NCBI GenBank assembly: GCA_963804645.1 | Contig: CAWDRG010000017.1 | Location: forward strand, 794,276-858,275 | Reading direction: 5' to 3' | Length of the DNA stretch: 64,000 nucleotides | From: an uncultured Bacillota bacterium | GTDB lineage: Bacteria > Sysuimicrobiota > Sysuimicrobiia > Sysuimicrobiales > Segetimicrobiaceae | Part shown: positions 57,214 through 63,946 of the stretch, in pieces | Numbering within the stretch: the stretch's first letter is position 1 | Layout of the letters: each line of letters starts with the position of its first letter | Position numbers and translations under genes: made by a program | Notes under the pieces: generated by a model | What the model was told of the DNA's origin: nothing | Database searches by the model: none | Seen by the model: the letters and a program-made list of their open reading frames with translations, nothing else

Positions 57214-58221
57214 ATGACGAACGGACGCGCATCCATGACTCGGCGCGAGCGGATCCAGGCGGTGCTCCGCGGCGAGGAACCCGATCGGCCCCCGATCAGC
57301 CTGTGGCGCCACTTCCCCGGAGAGGACGACACCGCGGCCAAACTGGCGGAGGCGACCGTCGCGTTTCAGCGGCGGTACGACTCGGACCTGGTCAAACTCA
57401 TGCCGACCGGCATGTACGCGGTGATCGACTACGGCGTCCGCGTCGTGCCGTCGGGCGACGCGATCGGGACGACGCGCTTCGCGTCAGGCCCGATCCACGA
57501 GCCGGGGGATTGGGAGCGGCTGCCGAAGGTCTCGCCGGCGGAGCGCACGCTCGGCGCCCAGGTCGACGCCGTCCGGCTGGTGCGCGCGGCGATCGGGCCC
57601 GACACGCCCCTCGTACAGACGATTTTCAGTCCGCTCACGATGGCGGTCAAGGTCGCCGGCGTGGTGGAGACCGTCGTCGACGCGGCCGAGCGGCACGAGG
57701 CGGCGCTCCACACGGCACTGTCTAAAATGGCCGAGGACGTCATCGCCTTCGGACGCAGGTGCCTGGACGCAGGCGCGGACGGCTTCTTTTTTGCGACGCA
57801 GCTCGCCGCCCGCGGTGCCGCGCCCCACGGCCTATACCGCCGCCTGGGCGTCCCGCACGATCTCCACGTCCTCCAGGCGCTGCGCGGCGGGGCTCGGTGC
57901 ATGATCCTGCACCTGCACGGCCTCGAGCCGATGTTCGAACTGGCGGACGAGTATCCCGTGGACGCGGTGAACTGGCACGACCGCGACACGTCCCCGTCGC
58001 TCGCCGACGCCAGGCGGCTGACCACGCGCGCGCTGGTGGCGGGCATCGCCAGGACCGGCGTGATCGCACACGGAAGTCCGGAGGAAGCCGCCGCCGAAGT
58101 CCGCGATGCGGTGCGCCAGACCGACGGCCGCGTCATCGTGGCGCCGGGGTGCGTCATCCCCTACCAGGCGCCGTCGGAGAATCTCCTCGCTGCCCGCCGC
58201 GCCGTGGGCTGCGCCCCCTGA
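57214..58221 (+). CDS. Uroporphyrinogen decarboxylase (URO-D)-fold family protein
   Basis: RERIQAVLRGE.PDRPP, QTIFSPLT, LHLHG, VAPGCVI. Confidence 0.85.
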   Translation: MTNGRASMTRRERIQAVLRGEEPDRPPISLWRHFPGEDDTAAKLAEATVAFQRRYDSDLVKLMPTGMYAVIDYGVRVVPSGDAIGTTRFASGPIHEPGDWERLPKVSPAERTLGAQVDAVRLVRAAIGPDTPLVQTIFSPLTMAVKVAGVVETVVDAAERHEAALHTALSKMAEDVIAFGRRCLDAGADGFFFATQLAARGAAPHGLYRRLGVPHDLHVLQALRGGARCMILHLHGLEPMFELADEYPVDAVNWHDRDTSPSLADARRLTTRALVAGIARTGVIAHGSPEEAAAEVRDAVRQTDGRVIVAPGCVIPYQAPSENLLAARRAVGCAP

Positions 58222-58256
58222 CGGAGACGCGACCGACGTGACGGCGTGATGACTCG

Positions 58257-58384
58257 TGTAGGCTGTCAGGATACCGTTCAGTAAGACCCCCCAGAAAATA
58301 AGGGATTTTGACCCCTCTGCCACGAGACCGTTCAGTCGTTTTGGCAAGATAACGTTCAGTTTTCCCGTCGAAGAGACGTTCGGT
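58257..58384 (+). mobile_element. Putative Tn7/Tn5053-like transposon end: terminal TGT plus four 19-bp transposase-binding repeats
   Basis: TGT at 58257; repeats at 58264, 58318, 58342 and 58366 sharing the core CGTTC(A/G)GT. Confidence 0.65.
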
Positions 58385-58599
58385 CACCGCTGGGCCCGAA
58401 GGTCCACACTCCCGACCTGCCGAACCCCGACCGCTACAGGGGACGTCTTGTCGTGGGGTCTGATATGAACGAGCCTGTCAAGTACCGTGTAGGTCAAGCC
58501 ACGAACGGCCCTCCGTCGTCCCAGAGGATGGACGGCGTATTCGGGTCCTGGAAGCGAAGCGTTCGCGACGGTGAATCACTCTGATATCGGTTATGAAAA

Positions 58600-58790
58600 G
58601 AGAGTGCCTCGTGCACGGCTGCGACGTAACGATAGAGGAGCCGGGCTCATGGGGCACGAGGGGACCACTAGCTAAGGGCAGGCCGTCGCGAATATGGACC
58701 ACGAGTCCGTTCTGATATCTGGCCGCCCCTGCGACTGACCCGGTTGCGCTGCGAGCGCGAATGCGTAGGTGTCGTGTTGCCCAGGCTGTG
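58600..58790 (+). ncRNA. Putative bridge RNA of the inner IS110
   Basis: 5' stem-loop, target loop (CGAATAT, TCTGATAT) and donor loop (ATGCGTA) matching the insertion site and the element ends. Confidence 0.72.
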
Positions 58791-58808
58791 TTCCAAAGGG
58801 GGGCTGAC

Positions 58809-60062
58809 ATGCGCGCGATAGGGCTTGACGTCCACAAGCACTTCGCTGAGAGTTGCCGTGCTTGAGCCCGGACGCAAGCGATTCGAGCACCTGCGAACGC
58901 ATCTCAGACGACGCCGGCGGCCCTGCGCAGCATTCGCTCAGCACGCTGCAATTCGACGGATCGCGTCGTACTGGAAGCCAGCATCAATACATGGCCGATC
59001 GCTGAATTGCTGCGCGCGCATGCCGGTCAAGTCATCGTCTCCAACCCAATGCGGACGCGGGCCATCGCGAGCGCCAAGATCAAGACCGATCGCGTGGATA
59101 GCGCGATTTTGGCACAATTGCTTGCCGCGGATTTCATCCCACCTGTGTGGGCACCAGATCCGGCGCCACGCAGACGCTCGCGCCATCAAGTGGCGAACCA
59201 TCAGTCGTTAGTCCAGCAGCGAACGCGATCTGCGGAATCGGATTCACGCCATTTTGGACCGTAACCTTGTTGCGACAGTCCTTCACGGACTTGTTCGGCA
59301 AGGCCGGCTCGTCGCGTGGTTGGCCGAGTGTGCTCGCTGCCGCGTCGAGGAGAAGCGATCAAGTCGATAGTATGCTCCGATTGCTCGACCGCCGTGGAAG
59401 CCGAGATCCAAGTGAGCCGAACAACGTATCGCCCAAGCCGCTCTTGCGGATCCGTCAGGTGACTGCGCTTGATGACCATCCCAGGAGTCGGCTTGACCAC
59501 GGCCGTCGCTCTCCTGGCTGTCATCGGGGATGTCACGCGGTTTCCGCGCCCAACGCACCTGGTCGGCTATCTTGGGCCTCGACCCACGGGTCCGCCAATC
59601 CGGTGAAACCGTCCAGCCTTATACAGGCCACATCAGTCGGCAAGGACAGGCGCACGCCCGTGGGCTGTTGGTGGAGGCCGCCCAGTGCTACAATTCGTGT
59701 GGCGGGGCCTCTGCGTGCATTCTACGAGCGTATGCAGTGGTCACCGCGGGAAAGCAGATCGCCGATCGTTGCGGTGGCGCGAAAATTGGCGGTGTTGGCC
59801 TGGCACTTGCTCGCCGATAAGAGCGAGTACCGCTGGACACCTCCGAGTCTCACGGCGCACAAGCACCGTCGAGGTCGAGCTGAAAGCAGGCGCGCCTCAC
59901 CAGCGCGGGCGATCGATCGTCGGCATTCGCACGCAACAGACATCCGACCAACGAGCAGACGTTAACGCCGCTGAGAACGACAAGCTTAAAAGAGGCGGAG
60001 GGACACTACCGAACGATGGTAGCGGCCCGCCGCGGCGAAGGGTGCAGCGGGAAAAGCCTTGA
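58809..60062 (+). pseudogene. IS110 transposase with many frameshifts (decay or read errors)
   Basis: MRAIGLDVHK, VVLEAS, KIKTDRVDS, IPGVG, RQSG..GHISRQG..LLVEAA, VAVARKLA spread over several frames. Confidence 0.85.
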
Positions 60063-60074
60063 CATTTTCATGCG

Positions 60075-60265
60075 TATTCGGCGGTTACCCGCACGAAGCG
60101 GGCAGAGCGCACATGATTGTGATTCGTCGGGAGCTGCCTCAATCTAGGAACGTGGGTCGGCACAGACGTCAGCCTGTCCGCCACATAGACCCCTCGAGGA
60201 TGCTCCTGACCGCTGCTTCGCCTCCAGGTCCAGAACACGTCCGTCGATCCTCGGAATCTGTTCCT
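60075..60265 (-). ncRNA. Putative bridge/seek RNA of the outer IS110 (5' part; continues at 58587-58560 beyond the inner IS)
   Basis: Target loop GGGGTCTA and CTAGA matches the empty site; donor-loop stem pairs across the inner element. Confidence 0.68.
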
Positions 60266-60271
60266 GGTACT

Positions 60272-61381
60272 CTACGCCGCGGTGGTGCTCGACACGCTAT
60301 GCGCGATTGCCCAGACGAATCCTGCCAACTCCCGCGCGACGGCGACGATCGCGACTGGCCGTGGCTTATTGCGCTGGGTCAGGCGCCAGTAGCGGCGGTG
60401 AAGCCGGTCCTGCGCACGGCGGGCGATCTGCACCACTGCCGCCGGACAGCCGTGGCGTCGTTTGGTGATCGTCGCGCCGCTGCTGTTGTGATGCGAGTAG
60501 CTCCAGGCCGCTTCGACCAGGACACGGCGGAGATGCGCGTTGCCGACTTTCGTAATAGAGCCGCGGCGGGTCCTGTCTCCGCTGCTGTTCTCGGAGCACA
60601 CCAAGCCGGTGAAGTCCATGTACGCGCGGGCGTGCCCAAAGCGCCGGAAGTCCTGTGTTTCGACAATCAGTGTGATCGCGGTCAGCGTGTCGACGCCTTT
60701 CAGACAGCGCAGGCCTTGCACAAGCGCCGCATAGCTCGGCCGTTGCGCCAGTTCGAGCACCTGGGTGGTCAAACTCGCCAACCGGGCGTCGGCTTCTTCG
60801 ACCCCGCGGAGATACGCATCAAACGTCTGCTGGGCCAACGTCAACTCAAACCGTTGCTGACGGAGCCACGCGTAATGCTTCTGACTCCACGCTTGCTTGC
60901 CATCGTACAGCCGTCCTTGACGAAGGAGAAATTTGCTCAGCCGATGTCGGGCGCGCAGCCGGTCGGCCACGGCGTCTTCGCGCGCACGGACGAGGTCTCT
61001 GGCCGCTTCCTCTTCCCCGGTGGGCACCCGAATTTCCGTGAGTTGCCCCGCGCGATAGAGTTGGGCCAAGTTCTCCGCGTCACGCCGATCCGTTTTGACC
61101 CGATCGCCGGGACGCACGGGCGTCAGGCCCGGGGCGATCACCGCCGCCTGGCAGCCCAGACGATACAACTGCCGGTGCAGCGTATATCCACACGGCCCCG
61201 CCTCGTACACAAACACCGCATTCCCGTTCTTCATGATCCGTTTCACCAAGCGCTCGACGGCCCGCGCGTCGTTCTCGATCGTGCACGTCTCCTGAGGCCG
61301 CGCAACGTTTGGCGGCAGGACCGCGGCCGTGATGCTCCCTTTGTGGACATCCAGACCAACCACTATGCTATGCTGATCCAT
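60272..61381 (-). CDS. IS110 family transposase (DEDD recombinase), intact
   Basis: VGLDVHK, VYEAGPCG, VKTDRRDA, LKGVD, ENSSG..RGSITKVGN..LVEAAW, AVARELAGFVW. Confidence 0.95.
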   Translation of the reverse strand: MDQHSIVVGLDVHKGSITAAVLPPNVARPQETCTIENDARAVERLVKRIMKNGNAVFVYEAGPCGYTLHRQLYRLGCQAAVIAPGLTPVRPGDRVKTDRRDAENLAQLYRAGQLTEIRVPTGEEEAARDLVRAREDAVADRLRARHRLSKFLLRQGRLYDGKQAWSQKHYAWLRQQRFELTLAQQTFDAYLRGVEEADARLASLTTQVLELAQRPSYAALVQGLRCLKGVDTLTAITLIVETQDFRRFGHARAYMDFTGLVCSENSSGDRTRRGSITKVGNAHLRRVLVEAAWSYSHHNSSGATITKRRHGCPAAVVQIARRAQDRLHRRYWRLTQRNKPRPVAIVAVARELAGFVWAIAHSVSSTTAA

Positions 61382-61471
61382 GAGCCGGCACCCCCGTATG
61401 TGGATAGGCCTCCGTCCTGGTGGCAACCCACGTATTACGCGGGTCGCCGGCTCGTTCATCTTATCTAGCGA

Positions 61472-63946
61472 ATGGCTCGTCGGCCGAAGAAGCGGGTCAC
61501 GAAGAGACCGGCTGCCCAGCGGCCGGCACGGGCTACCCGGCCGAAGAAGCGGCCTGCGAAGAAACCGGCTGCCAAGCGGCTCGCACAGCGTCCTCGTGAA
61601 CAAAGTCCTGTCGCACCGCCGCCTCGCCGGCAGCTTCACAACCTTCCAACCCAACTCACCAGCTTCATCGGGCGTGAGCGAGAGATCGTGGAGATCAAAC
61701 GACTCCTCGGCACCACGCGCTTGCTCACGTTGACCGGATCGGGCGGCGCGGGGAAGACGCGGCTCGCCCTCGAGGCAGCAGCTGATGTGCTCGACGTGTT
61801 TCCCGACGGGATTTGGGTGACGGAGTTAGCCTCGGTCACCGACCCGGCGTTGGTGCCTCGAGTCGTTGCGGCTGCTGTGGGGGTTCGTGATGAGTCCGGG
61901 CGGCCCGTGGCCGATGTTCTCACCGGCTATCTGCAGTCGAAGCACATGCTCTTGGTGTTGGACAACTGCGAGCACCTCATCGAGGCGTGCGCTCAACTGG
62001 TCGATGCTCTCCTGCGGGCGTGTCCTTCCGTGCGCATCTTGGCGACGAGCCGGGCAGCGCTCAACATTCCCGGCGAAACGGTGTCGCGGGTGCCGTCACT
62101 TTCCCTTCCGGATCCCACGGCCCTCCCGCCCGTTGACCAACTCCTCGGCTACGAAGCCGTCCGGTTGTTCGTCGAGCGTGCCGCCGCAGCGTTCTCAACC
62201 TTCGCCCTCACGGACCAGAATGCACCCGCGGTCGTCCAGATCTGCCGGAGGCTCGACGGGATGCCGTTGGCGATCGAGCTGGCCGCCGCGCGCGTGAAGG
62301 AACTGACGCCGGAGGAGATTGCGACGCGGTTAGGTGATAGCTTCCGGCTTTTCATCAAAGGTAGCCGGATAGCGATTCCGAGACACCGAACACTGCGCGC
62401 CGTCATTGATTGGAGTTACGATCTCTTGTCGGCGTCCGAGCGAGCCGTGTTGCAGCGGTTGTCGGTTTTTGCGGGCGGTTGGACGCTAGAGGCCGCGCAG
62501 GCGATCTGCGCGGGAGATGGCGTGGAGGCAGCCGAGGTCTTCGAGCTCGTGCTCGGCCTCGTGGCCAGTTCGTTGGTCGAGCGTGCTACGCAAGGGCGTT
62601 ATGGGTTGCTGGAAACGGTGCGCCAGTACAGCTGGGAGCGACTGCAGGAGACGGGGCAGGCCGACGAAGTACGCCGGCGGCATCGCGATTGGTACCTGGA
62701 CCTGGCAGAGCGCGCAGATCCACGATTGCGGGGTCCCGAGCAAATTACGTGGTTTGAGCGGCTGGAGGCGGAACACGATAACCTGCGGGTAGCCCTGACC
62801 TACAGTATGGCCGATGCAGGCGGCGCGGAGGACACTCTACGGCTCGCGGGCGCATTGACTTGGTTTTGGTTCATCCATGGACATTGGAGCGAGGGGCGAA
62901 CCTGGCTGGAAGGAGCGTTAACGCGAGAACATGCGGCACCGCGCGCTATACGTCCCACGGGCATCAGCGGCGCCGCGTGTTTCGCCTGGCGGCAAGGCGA
63001 CTCTGCCCGCGCTACGCAACTCGGGGAGCGGGGGTTGGCACTCTGCCGTGCGCTGGACGATAAGGTGAACAGCGTTTGGATGTTGATGTGGTTGGGAATC
63101 GTGGCCCTACGGCAGATGCAGCGTGCGCGGGCGGAGGAACTGATTGAGGAAGGTGTCGCGCTGTCTCGGGAGATCGGGGATGACTGGGTTTTGGGTCTGA
63201 TGTTGGCTCAACTCGGGATCCAGGCTCGCACCCTGCGCGAATACGACCGGGCGGTGTCGATTCACACTGAGTGCCTGTCCCTGGCTAGAAAGACAGGGGA
63301 CGCATTTGCCACCGCGTATCAGCTTCGCAATCTCGCAGTAGATAGCTTTGAAAGCGAACAATACGATCGGGCGGCTGGCCACTATCTGGACAGCTTACGC
63401 CAGATCCGCCGCATCGCGGATCGGTGGATCACAGGCGAGTGCATCGACGGGTTGGCGGCCATCGCCAGCATCCGTGGGCATCACGGCACGGCGGCCCAGT
63501 TGTTTGGGGTCGGTGAGACCTTGCGGGCACTCACGGGTCATTTTCGCCCCAACGCCTCGCGTGTTCATTACGACCCCTATGTGGCCGCGACCCGAGGTGC
63601 GCTTGGCGCACAAGAGTTCAGCCGGCTGTGGAACGAGGGCGGTGCGATGCCGCTCGATGCGGGGGTCGACTTCGCGCTTGCCACACCGGACGTGCCCGCC
63701 GATGCAGCGGTGCGGGCCCGAGCGGCCGGAGACCCGAGCCCGCTCGCCTCTCGAGAACGCGAAGTCGCCATCCTGGTCGCGCAGGGCCTGTCCAACCGCG
63801 ACATTGCGACCCGTCTCGTCATCTCGGAGCGTACGGCGCAGAAGCACGTGCAGCACATCCTCAACAAATTGGGGTTCTCTTCTCGCGCCCGAATCGCCAC
63901 GTGGGTCGTGCAACGTGGGCTCCTTCCACCCTCTGAATCCCCGTAG
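61472..63946 (+). CDS. ATPase (STAND)-TPR-LuxR HTH transcriptional regulator
   Basis: LTSFIGRERE, GSGGAGKT, LVLDNCEH, LDGMPLAIELAAAR, TPRs, C-terminal REREVA..GLSNRDIA..KLG. Confidence 0.93.
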   Translation: MARRPKKRVTKRPAAQRPARATRPKKRPAKKPAAKRLAQRPREQSPVAPPPRRQLHNLPTQLTSFIGREREIVEIKRLLGTTRLLTLTGSGGAGKTRLALEAAADVLDVFPDGIWVTELASVTDPALVPRVVAAAVGVRDESGRPVADVLTGYLQSKHMLLVLDNCEHLIEACAQLVDALLRACPSVRILATSRAALNIPGETVSRVPSLSLPDPTALPPVDQLLGYEAVRLFVERAAAAFSTFALTDQNAPAVVQICRRLDGMPLAIELAAARVKELTPEEIATRLGDSFRLFIKGSRIAIPRHRTLRAVIDWSYDLLSASERAVLQRLSVFAGGWTLEAAQAICAGDGVEAAEVFELVLGLVASSLVERATQGRYGLLETVRQYSWERLQETGQADEVRRRHRDWYLDLAERADPRLRGPEQITWFERLEAEHDNLRVALTYSMADAGGAEDTLRLAGALTWFWFIHGHWSEGRTWLEGALTREHAAPRAIRPTGISGAACFAWRQGDSARATQLGERGLALCRALDDKVNSVWMLMWLGIVALRQMQRARAEELIEEGVALSREIGDDWVLGLMLAQLGIQARTLREYDRAVSIHTECLSLARKTGDAFATAYQLRNLAVDSFESEQYDRAAGHYLDSLRQIRRIADRWITGECIDGLAAIASIRGHHGTAAQLFGVGETLRALTGHFRPNASRVHYDPYVAATRGALGAQEFSRLWNEGGAMPLDAGVDFALATPDVPADAAVRARAAGDPSPLASREREVAILVAQGLSNRDIATRLVISERTAQKHVQHILNKLGFSSRARIATWVVQRGLLPPSESP
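61481..61590 (+). repeat. Two imperfect 57-bp tandem repeats encoding the basic N-terminus
   Basis: CGGCCGAAGAAGCGG...ACCGGCTGCC at 61481 and 61538. Confidence 0.75.

Follow-up and report, generated by a model that had tools for sequence, protein, structure and literature searches.

Insertion sequences (ISs) of the IS110 family that target other mobile elements are already known. IS4321 and IS5075 target the terminal repeats of the Tn21 family, and IS1111-attC elements target integron attC sites. Like the element described here, they are specialized on conserved sequences of other mobile elements, but their targets are protein-recognized repeats or recombination sites rather than a guide-RNA gene. 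In Pseudomonas putida H, IS1383 is said to integrate specifically into the inverted repeats of IS1384, in work reportedly by Muller, Lauf & Herrmann in 2001. That case is also one of an IS110-family element with a specific target in another IS, giving nested ISs, but the target there is the terminal repeat of an unrelated IS, whereas here it is the guide-RNA gene of another IS110, and the work on IS1383 and IS1384 predates RNA guidance. Here we describe a nested pair in a 64,000-nucleotide (nt) stretch of the genome of an uncultured Bacillota bacterium (the window; positions 794276-858275 of contig C17 in genome G000, an assembly of 22 contigs and 5.3 Mb). An inner IS110-family element lies within an outer, IS1111-like IS110-family element, and judging from the copies compared below it is probable that it was inserted by its own bridge RNA and recombinase into the DNA that encodes the donor guide of the outer bridge RNA.

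A further point of reference is IS621, whose bridge RNA is reportedly treated by Hiraizumi et al. 2024. According to the available text of Durrant et al. 2024 (PMC11208160), the left target guide (LTG) and left donor guide (LDG) of IS621 are identical to the top-strand left halves, and the right target guide (RTG) is complementary to the core and right target. The two internal loops of that RNA, the inclusion of the core in the guides and the duplication of the core at both junctions are alike here. Compared with IS621 as presented there, the order of guides differs in both elements here, the top-strand-pairing guide standing 5' of the bottom-strand-pairing one; TAT (inner) and AG (outer) take the place of the core CT, the natural target is another element's RNA gene rather than a repetitive extragenic palindromic (REP) sequence, and a right donor guide was found in neither RNA.

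The IS1111 layout is described in the accessible parts of two papers as sub-terminal inverted repeats of 7-17 bp with a long non-coding region downstream of the transposase gene (PMC11208160, PMC11187229). IS1111 seekRNAs carry the top-strand match 5' of the bottom-strand match and go with transposases of 330-350 amino acids (aa), and the IS110 group in the narrow sense has an upstream non-coding region with the bottom-strand match 5' of the top-strand match (PMC11187229, same parts, which also mention an "IS4321 target"). The outer element shares the downstream region, the sub-terminal repeats and the guide order with ISEc11, ISPa11 and ISKpn4 as described in the available text of Siddiquee et al. 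2024 (PMC11187229): an 11-bp sub-terminal repeat and a long downstream non-coding region are both present. Its transposase, in contrast, has 369 aa and lies outside the 330-350 aa of the group. The inner element combines an IS1111-type guide order with an upstream non-coding region of 221 nt, a combination that the same text lists only as an exception, ISMtsp17 (PMC11187229); it also has a 7-bp sub-terminal repeat. In expanded IS110 loci, the available part of a preprint (Hu et al. 2026, 10.64898/2026.08.14.744561) describes extra DNA at a left-donor-like boundary, as here; the insert here, however, is an autonomous IS110-family element with its own guides and core. In literature searches outside subscription papers and supplements, no description turned up of an IS110-family element that has a bridge-RNA gene as its target.

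The two elements and their parts lie in the window as follows.

58460 to 61466, minus strand: the outer, IS1111-like element of the IS110 family, counted with the 2-nt core on either side
58460-58461 and 61465-61466: outer core, AG on the element's own strand (CT on the plus strand)
60272 to 61381, minus strand: outer transposase gene, intact, 369 aa, starting MDQHSIVVGLDVHKGS
58464 to 58474: right-end copy of the outer sub-terminal inverted repeat, ATGAACGAGCC, 11 bp, read from the sequence
61449 to 61459: left-end copy of the same repeat, GGCTCGTTCAT, 11 bp, read from the sequence
58585 to 60077, plus strand: inner IS110-family element with both flanking TAT cores (body 58588-60074)
58593 to 58599 and 60065-60071: inner sub-terminal inverted repeat, ATGAAAA and TTTTCAT, read from the sequence
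58809 to about 60057, plus strand: inner transposase reading frame, in several pieces in the window

Both elements belong to the IS110 family, as had been proposed from the sequence alone. Transposases of this family are RNA-guided DEDD recombinases with a DEDD/RuvC-like domain at the N-terminus and Transposase_20 at the C-terminus, and both proteins here have these domains. The model NF033542 ("IS110 family RNA-guided transposase", cutoff 140 bits) matched the outer transposase with 237.9 bits and the inner one, in an intact allele described below (allele B), with 244.3 bits; PF01548 and PF02371 matched the outer protein with 66 and 72 bits and the inner protein with 77 and 88 bits. The range searched for the outer transposase, 60272-61384, was the gene with one additional upstream codon. 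The two transposases are 29% identical. The outer sub-terminal repeat is kept in outer-family members, and the inner one is kept in relatives as GTATGAA and TTTCAT. Without the inner element the outer element is about 1515 bp long, with a left end of 83 nt and a restored 3' non-coding region of 324 nt.

The junctions identify what was inserted and where. TAT stands at 58585-58587 and again at 60075-60077, and the sequence TCTGATAT occurs both at the outer right end (58459-58466) and at 58580-58587, directly at the left junction of the inner element. The sequence-only reading had predicted that excision would restore a contiguous site, and its coordinates for the TAT repeats, the TCTGATAT copies and the two stem halves discussed below all hold on re-reading. 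The predicted empty site exists: contig C16 of this assembly carries an outer copy without the insert, with the sequence ...CACTCTGATATTCGGCGG.... The number of bases between the anchors GGTGAATCACTCTGA and TCGGCGGTTACCCGCAC is 1493 in the window, 1430 in the second copy of C21 (C21b), 1435 in C6 and C19, and 3 (TAT) in C16. TAT is thus present on both sides of the inner element and once in the empty site, without other target duplication. The contiguous GAATATCAGAGTGATTC is carried by the uninterrupted outer copies (C16 and relatives), and the 11-mer TCTGATATTCG of the empty site is found at a single place in the 5.3-Mb genome, namely the outer copy on C16. In Logan contigs from three public DNA runs, position 58584 is joined to 60075 with 3 shared letters, but the shorter sides are only 27-45 letters long, so that these contigs by themselves support the empty site weakly. 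All five inner copies that BLAST finds in this genome lie at the outer RNA site (the window on C17, two in tandem on C21, one each on C6 and C19; one of the C21 copies is cut by the contig start), and five of the six outer copies are occupied, C16 being free.

The ends of the outer element were placed by comparing copies. The six copies in this genome share a common sequence from GTCTGATATGAACG... (58458 on) to ...CATCTTATCTAG (61468), and their flanks differ; the five beyond the window copy have the same ends. In seven outer-family members (window, C16, G006c62, G005c38, G006c63, G011c12 and G012c10, where G numbers other than G000 denote other genomes), AG is the only constant sequence between the right end ...CCATATC and the flank, and the bases that follow it vary; AG is therefore taken as the outer core. 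The element is flanked by this core (CT/AG) only, without further target duplication. The TCT given in the sequence-only reading consists of this core, CT, and one additional base that agrees by coincidence.

The outer bridge RNA gene is divided by the inner element into two parts.

60078 to 60233, minus strand: 5' part of the outer bridge RNA gene, with the closing stem, all of arm 1 and the 5' half of arm 2
60187-60193, minus strand: putative outer RTG, GGGGTCT, arm 1, 5' side
60144-60150, minus strand: putative outer LTG, TTCCTAG, arm 1, 3' side
58540 to 58587, minus strand: 3' part of the outer bridge RNA gene, detached by the inner element, with the donor guide, a stem half and the 3' strand of the closing stem
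58581-58587, minus strand: putative outer left donor guide, ATATCAG (CTGATAT on the plus strand), arm 2
60119-60129 and 58566-58579, minus strand: halves of the stem closing the arm 2 loop (alignment A2, columns 105-115 and 166-179)

The outer bridge RNA would be roughly 200 nt long. Restored to one piece, the 324-nt 3' region folds with -148 kcal/mol (z = -6.0 against shuffles). The consensus structure from five uninterrupted relatives (alignment A2) consists of two arms and a long closing stem, and 11 of its 77 pairs show compensatory changes. The two stem halves, now separated, are paired in this consensus and close the loop, as the sequence-only reading had held. In arm 1, the RTG of each of seven elements was compared, as its reverse complement, with AG plus the right flank of that element; 5-7 of 8 positions match, against a mean of 3.6 and a maximum of 6 in 40 cross-pairings used as a control. 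On the 3' side, TTCCTAG resembles the left flank and core: where the left junction can be seen, in four cases, 5-6 of 7 positions agree. Because these variable guides covary with the element's own flanking target, arm 1 of the outer RNA is, on comparative grounds, the predicted target-binding loop, and the guide that pairs with the top strand stands first in it. The outer copies are 99.9-100% identical and lie at different, guide-matching targets.

Arm 2 carries the interrupted sequence. On the 3' side of its internal loop stands GAATATCAG-A, followed by the closing stem GTGATT...CGTCG; the counterpart position in arm 1 is occupied by TTCCTAG-A(T), followed by its own closing stem. ATATCAG is the same sequence as the final 5 nt of the right end (ATATC) followed by the AG core (58460-58466 on the plus strand). 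A left donor guide, according to the available text of PMC11208160, repeats the left donor and core as they read on the top strand, and by this rule of identity, together with the positional analogy to arm 1, ATATCAG is the putative outer left donor guide. The insertion site thus lies in the donor-binding loop, on the 3' side of the second internal loop, in agreement with the earlier proposal. A natural deletion derivative was also observed: in G012:C10 (L032), arm 2 is mostly deleted, including the donor guide, and arm 1 and the right end are kept.

The inner element has a bridge RNA of its own, in its 5' non-coding region.

58676 to 58779, plus strand: inner bridge RNA, two stem-loops each with an internal loop, from the family alignment
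58687-58694, plus strand: inner RTG-type guide, CGCGAATA (as RNA, CGCGAAUA), loop 1, 5' strand
58711-58718, plus strand: inner LTG-type guide, TCTGATAT (as RNA, UCUGAUAU), loop 1, 3' strand
58761-58767, plus strand: putative inner left donor guide, ATGCGTA (AUGCGUA), loop 2, 3' strand

Relatives of the inner element came from three sources: this genome, further genomes of its class, and metagenome contigs (loci L052-L059 include the latter). Across families, identity in a 105-nt block of the 5' non-coding region reaches 87%, compared with 65-75% elsewhere in the element, and within the inner-family alignment the scaffold is conserved and the loop strands, that is the guides, are variable. In the consensus structure from 13 sequences, 3 of the 29 pairs show compensatory changes, and these are confined to the arm 1 hairpin (GGAC/GTCC, GAGC/GCTC, GGGT/ACCC). 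The guides fit the site. UCUGAUAU repeats the left target and core (CTCTGA-TAT) without a difference, and CGCGAAUA can pair with the core and right target, at 6 of 8 positions (TATTCG) in this host; hosts L056 and L057, like the uninterrupted relative G005c38, carry its full complement TATTCGCG (8 of 8). In each of eight further members of the inner family, the arm 1 3' guide resembles the element's own left flank, as in G004c7, with guide GCCTTTAT and left flank ...GGCCTTTAT. The putative left donor guide equals the right end ...ATGCG plus TA, and relatives that end ...ATCCG carry AUCCGU(U/A), which indicates that this guide changes together with the end that it reads. It occupies the RNA position equivalent to that of ATATCAG in the outer RNA.

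The nesting recurs in other copies and genomes. Within G000, two inner alleles occur, one on C21 (allele A) and one on C6 and C19 (allele B), at an identical position inside outer copies that are 99.9-100% identical. The alleles are 73% identical (1016 matches and 370 mismatches in 1386 aligned positions), and two such alleles at one site imply that insertion there took place independently at least twice. L053 has allele A at 99.9% identity, and L052 and L054 have allele B at 100%, all within the same outer sequence. In the same genus, G004:C11 holds an outer copy that is 95% identical with allele A at 98.4%; a guide-pattern scan of genome contigs gave one record, by its coordinates probably this contig. 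In another genus, the left junction is visible in G012:C22 and G014:C321 before the contigs end, and G004:C26 ends exactly at the site and is uninformative. L056 and L059 have an inner-type element at the homologous position of a much more divergent host with a compact RNA region, where the host loop reads GACGGTGATCACCCTGATAT or similar; the L056 host has its own IS110-family transposase fragment (PF02371, E = 3e-24). Among eight metagenome contigs with the same target guides, six have the left junction in a host RNA, L055 is 5'-truncated and L057 does not. That the nesting recurs excludes a chance position. The earlier expectation that inner copies would all lie at this site in IS110 RNA genes thus stands for this genome and for the resolvable copies with the same guides, but not for L057.

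The copy of the inner element in the window requires caution. Its reading frame is in several pieces, whereas both alleles have an intact one (about 399 aa in A, 401 aa in B). The window copy is 63 bases longer than allele A, purely by insertions, and carries a base at 90 of the 93 indel columns of the two alleles. At the 463 columns where the alleles differ, it agrees with A in 305, with B in 147 and with neither in 11, in runs of 1-10 sites, and it has a single private change in the 1016 columns where A equals B. Contigs of public runs over 58730-59809 (about 1.05 kb) differ from the window by 53 letters and 34 gaps, and a 1341-nt public-run contig over the outer part has no differences from it; the inner version of the window was present in none of the public runs. 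The window inner copy is therefore a base-level mosaic whose apparent pseudogene should not be taken at face value; most likely it is a consensus of mixed reads of alleles A and B, an assembly artifact. The sequence-only reading had taken the inner transposase as decayed and in need of repair, which the intact alleles in the same genome contradict and make unnecessary. As to the misassembly that it had named as a refutation, the nesting recurs in independent contigs, and the inner sequence of the window is itself mosaic.

We propose the following course of events. Guided by arm 1, the outer element would have inserted into repeated DNA that lies shortly before a regulator gene. The inner target-binding loop would then have read CTCTGA-TAT-TCG(C/G)G on both strands, which is the DNA for the putative outer left donor guide and the loop bases directly 5' of it, and the inner recombinase would have exchanged strands at TAT within the donor guide, leaving TAT on both sides. 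Since the crossover lies at the inner core TAT and not at the outer AG, the inner machinery is the probable agent. In the nested copies, about 1.4-1.5 kb of inner DNA in antisense orientation now stands between one part of the outer RNA gene, arm 1 with half of arm 2, and the other, the donor guide with the closing strands. With its RNA arms split in this way, a nested copy should yield no working bridge RNA in cis, and it would depend on an intact copy, such as that on C16, for RNA in trans. The inner element would gain a multi-copy, host-neutral and mobile landing site. That five of six outer copies are occupied, although the copies are identical and lie at different targets, would mean either that the composite moves as a unit or that each new outer copy is quickly invaded.

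Several observations weigh against insertion of the inner element by its own RNA into an outer donor guide. A search of Rfam 15 across 57500-62500 at E <= 1 gave no match for either bridge RNA. The inner RNA region of the window, folded alone, is no better than shuffles (z = +0.4), so that the inner structure rests on the alignment. The inner RNA shows no right donor guide complementary to the core plus left end, the inner family having only a same-sense CGGTT, and the outer RNA has none either, with at most TCT pairing AGA. The right ends of the five uninterrupted outer relatives are all ATATCAG, which leaves the outer donor-guide assignment without covariation, and in G006c62 the RNA gene even reads ACATCAG, whereas the element ends in ATATCAG. 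At L057 there is no host transposase within about 700 nt, and the flanks match the left guide at 6 of 8 positions. The L057 site, GATCACCCTGGTAT|TCGCGGGTC, resembles the L056-type loop, and it may be a relic or an off-target insertion. The flank about 115 nt downstream of this copy (L057:1485-2906), TCCATCTTATCT, resembles an outer-type left end, and the sequence around the copy may be a transposase-less miniature of a host element.

A first alternative accepts that the insertion was site-specific but holds that its position in a bridge-RNA gene is incidental, the inner RNA having simply a 14-16-nt target within a multi-copy IS; neither selection to attack guide-RNA genes nor any functional interplay would then be involved. 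We regard this as a serious possibility, somewhat short of even. It gains from sister lineages that have the same scaffold with other guides and lie in ordinary places. A member in G064 lies in an asparaginase gene (PF00710, PF17763), one in G011 in a possible antitoxin-like gene that had no Pfam match, and several further inner-family members lie in sequence without identification. It also gains from the target itself. Only the left half and core of the inner target are tied to the outer right end; the right half (TCG...) lies outside the donor-matching part, is not tied to the host end sequence and varies (GAATATCAG compared with GTATATCAG in G011c12). Against an incidental position, the same guides occur in three diverged host lineages at the homologous loop position, and one sister lineage likewise lies in a mobile element, within the SPQAKGR(V/I)ERLFGT codons of an ISNCY-family transposase gene. 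Four such copies were found in three genomes (G022, G004:C7, G004:C6 and, in this genome, C19 at 48-51.5 kb).

L005 (G000:C19:48000-51500), L024, L023 and L070: sister-lineage loci

An intact paralogue of the ISNCY-type gene (L060:1052-2368) matched NF033594 with 383 bits, and the short fragments of the interrupted gene gave no match to Pfam. These comparisons suggest that the use of other ISs as targets is recurrent in the inner family, not universal. A label of "IS hunters" for the whole family was dropped, because members lie in an asparaginase gene and in sequence without identification.

The contrasting proposal, that the inner lineage is specialized on the guide-RNA genes of other IS110s, with loss of the host RNA in cis and co-transport in trans, we put forward only tentatively. 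Under such specialization every functional host copy would be a landing site, because the host must keep its donor guide identical to its right end. The sequence-only reading had called this a hard-to-escape landing pad. The left half and core do overlap host-end bases, but the right half varies, so that a host could perhaps escape with its donor guide unchanged, which weakens the argument as first put. The inner LTG UCUGAUAU is also the exact complement of the outer RNA donor guide AUAUCAGA, and the two bridge RNAs could therefore pair or compete for the host right end. Adaptive hyperparasitism of the outer by the inner element would be a plausible reading.

It is improbable that the internal ATATCAG is an alternative internal end of the outer element rather than a guide, in which case the inner element would target an end instead of an RNA gene. 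The internal and terminal copies share 8 nt (ATATCAGA), and ISPpu9, as described in the available text of PMC12288879, is modular through duplicated A/B boxes with boundaries that also carry a conserved AG. The internal copy, however, has no adjacent 11-bp sub-terminal repeat and stands on the 3' side of an internal loop between conserved, partly compensated stems, in a position that mirrors both the arm 1 LTG and the inner-family donor guide, which covaries with the right end.

Capture of the inner element by the outer recombinase, through the resemblance that DNA for a left donor guide necessarily has to the outer right end, is very unlikely. The accessible part of the preprint on expanded IS110 loci (10.64898/2026.08.14.744561) describes donor-end half-matches that seed internal insertions, and the boundary here does lie in sequence identical to the outer left donor plus core, with a one-sided match. 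The crossover, on the other hand, took place at TAT and so missed the outer AG core by 2 nt; the inner element has its own terminus and core at either junction; its target loop fits both half-sites (8 of 8 and 6-8 of 8); and sister elements use the same inner ends in unrelated targets. That the nesting itself is an assembly artifact we consider hardly credible, since, although the window inner sequence is chimeric for two alleles, the public-run contigs over the inner part differ from it as given above and no public DNA run contains more than 0.54 of the words sampled from 58300-61600, the same junctions, with inner genes that are intact, stand at four other loci here and recur outside this assembly, both in independent metagenome contigs and in three further genomes.

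IS110-family elements form a circular intermediate with a promoter across the joined ends. Joined ends would here give TTGACA-17 nt-TATGAA for the inner element and TTGACA-17 nt-TAAGAT for the outer, and no promoter-like sites were found in the integrated state. The predicted junction-only promoters fit the habit of the family.

In the window, 5 nt separate the outer element from the start codon ATG of a regulator gene, whose LuxR-type product has 824 aa and contains STAND/AAA and TPR parts. The element is inserted in a sequence of about 110 nt that is repeated, at 83-91% identity, before similar gene starts elsewhere in the genome. The flanks of the outer element match paralogous empty sites on C9, C2 and C22 at 83-91% and adjoin each other there.

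58400 to 58459: left part of the repeated sequence that received the outer element
61467-61515: right part of the same sequence, directly before the ATG at 61472
61472-63946: open reading frame of the LuxR-type STAND/TPR regulator, from Pfam matches
C9:121790-121900 (L006), C2:40021-40133, C22:4116-4222 and C17:623264-624376: paralogues of the insertion-site repeat

The occupied site, CTAGAC, fits the outer target guides better than TCAGC(C/T) of the unoccupied paralogues. Just inside the outer left end, GTATTAC (window 61432-61438) marks a position used by three different insertions, which have terminal inverted repeats CTGAATCCGGCG... and GTATTAC repeated on both sides. On C21 (L002:4886-7871) these are two tandem IS1380-family elements (NF033539, 278.6 bits each), and on C6 and C19 (L003 and L004) they are derivatives resembling miniature inverted-repeat transposable elements, of 229 and 245 bp, in opposite orientations and mutually diverged. 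Contig C21 also carries two outer plus inner composites head to tail, 52 bp apart (L002:1-4885), and its first outer copy lacks the last 30 bases beyond GTATTAC.

For annotation, this locus is a caution, as what seems a decayed transposase is most likely an assembly mosaic of two live alleles. For the study of bridge RNAs, the nesting serves as an internal control for the position of the donor guide in IS1111-type RNAs. The two elements also form a ready orthogonal pair with intact alleles and defined guides, the inner with a TAT core and a 5' RNA, the outer with an AG core and a 3' RNA. Bridge recombinases are under development as programmable genome editors, and their natural targets show what the guides evolved to do. 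Here that target would be the guide-RNA gene of another transposon, programmed into an RNA-guided transposon, which would make the pair a natural example of conflict or hitch-hiking within the IS110 family.

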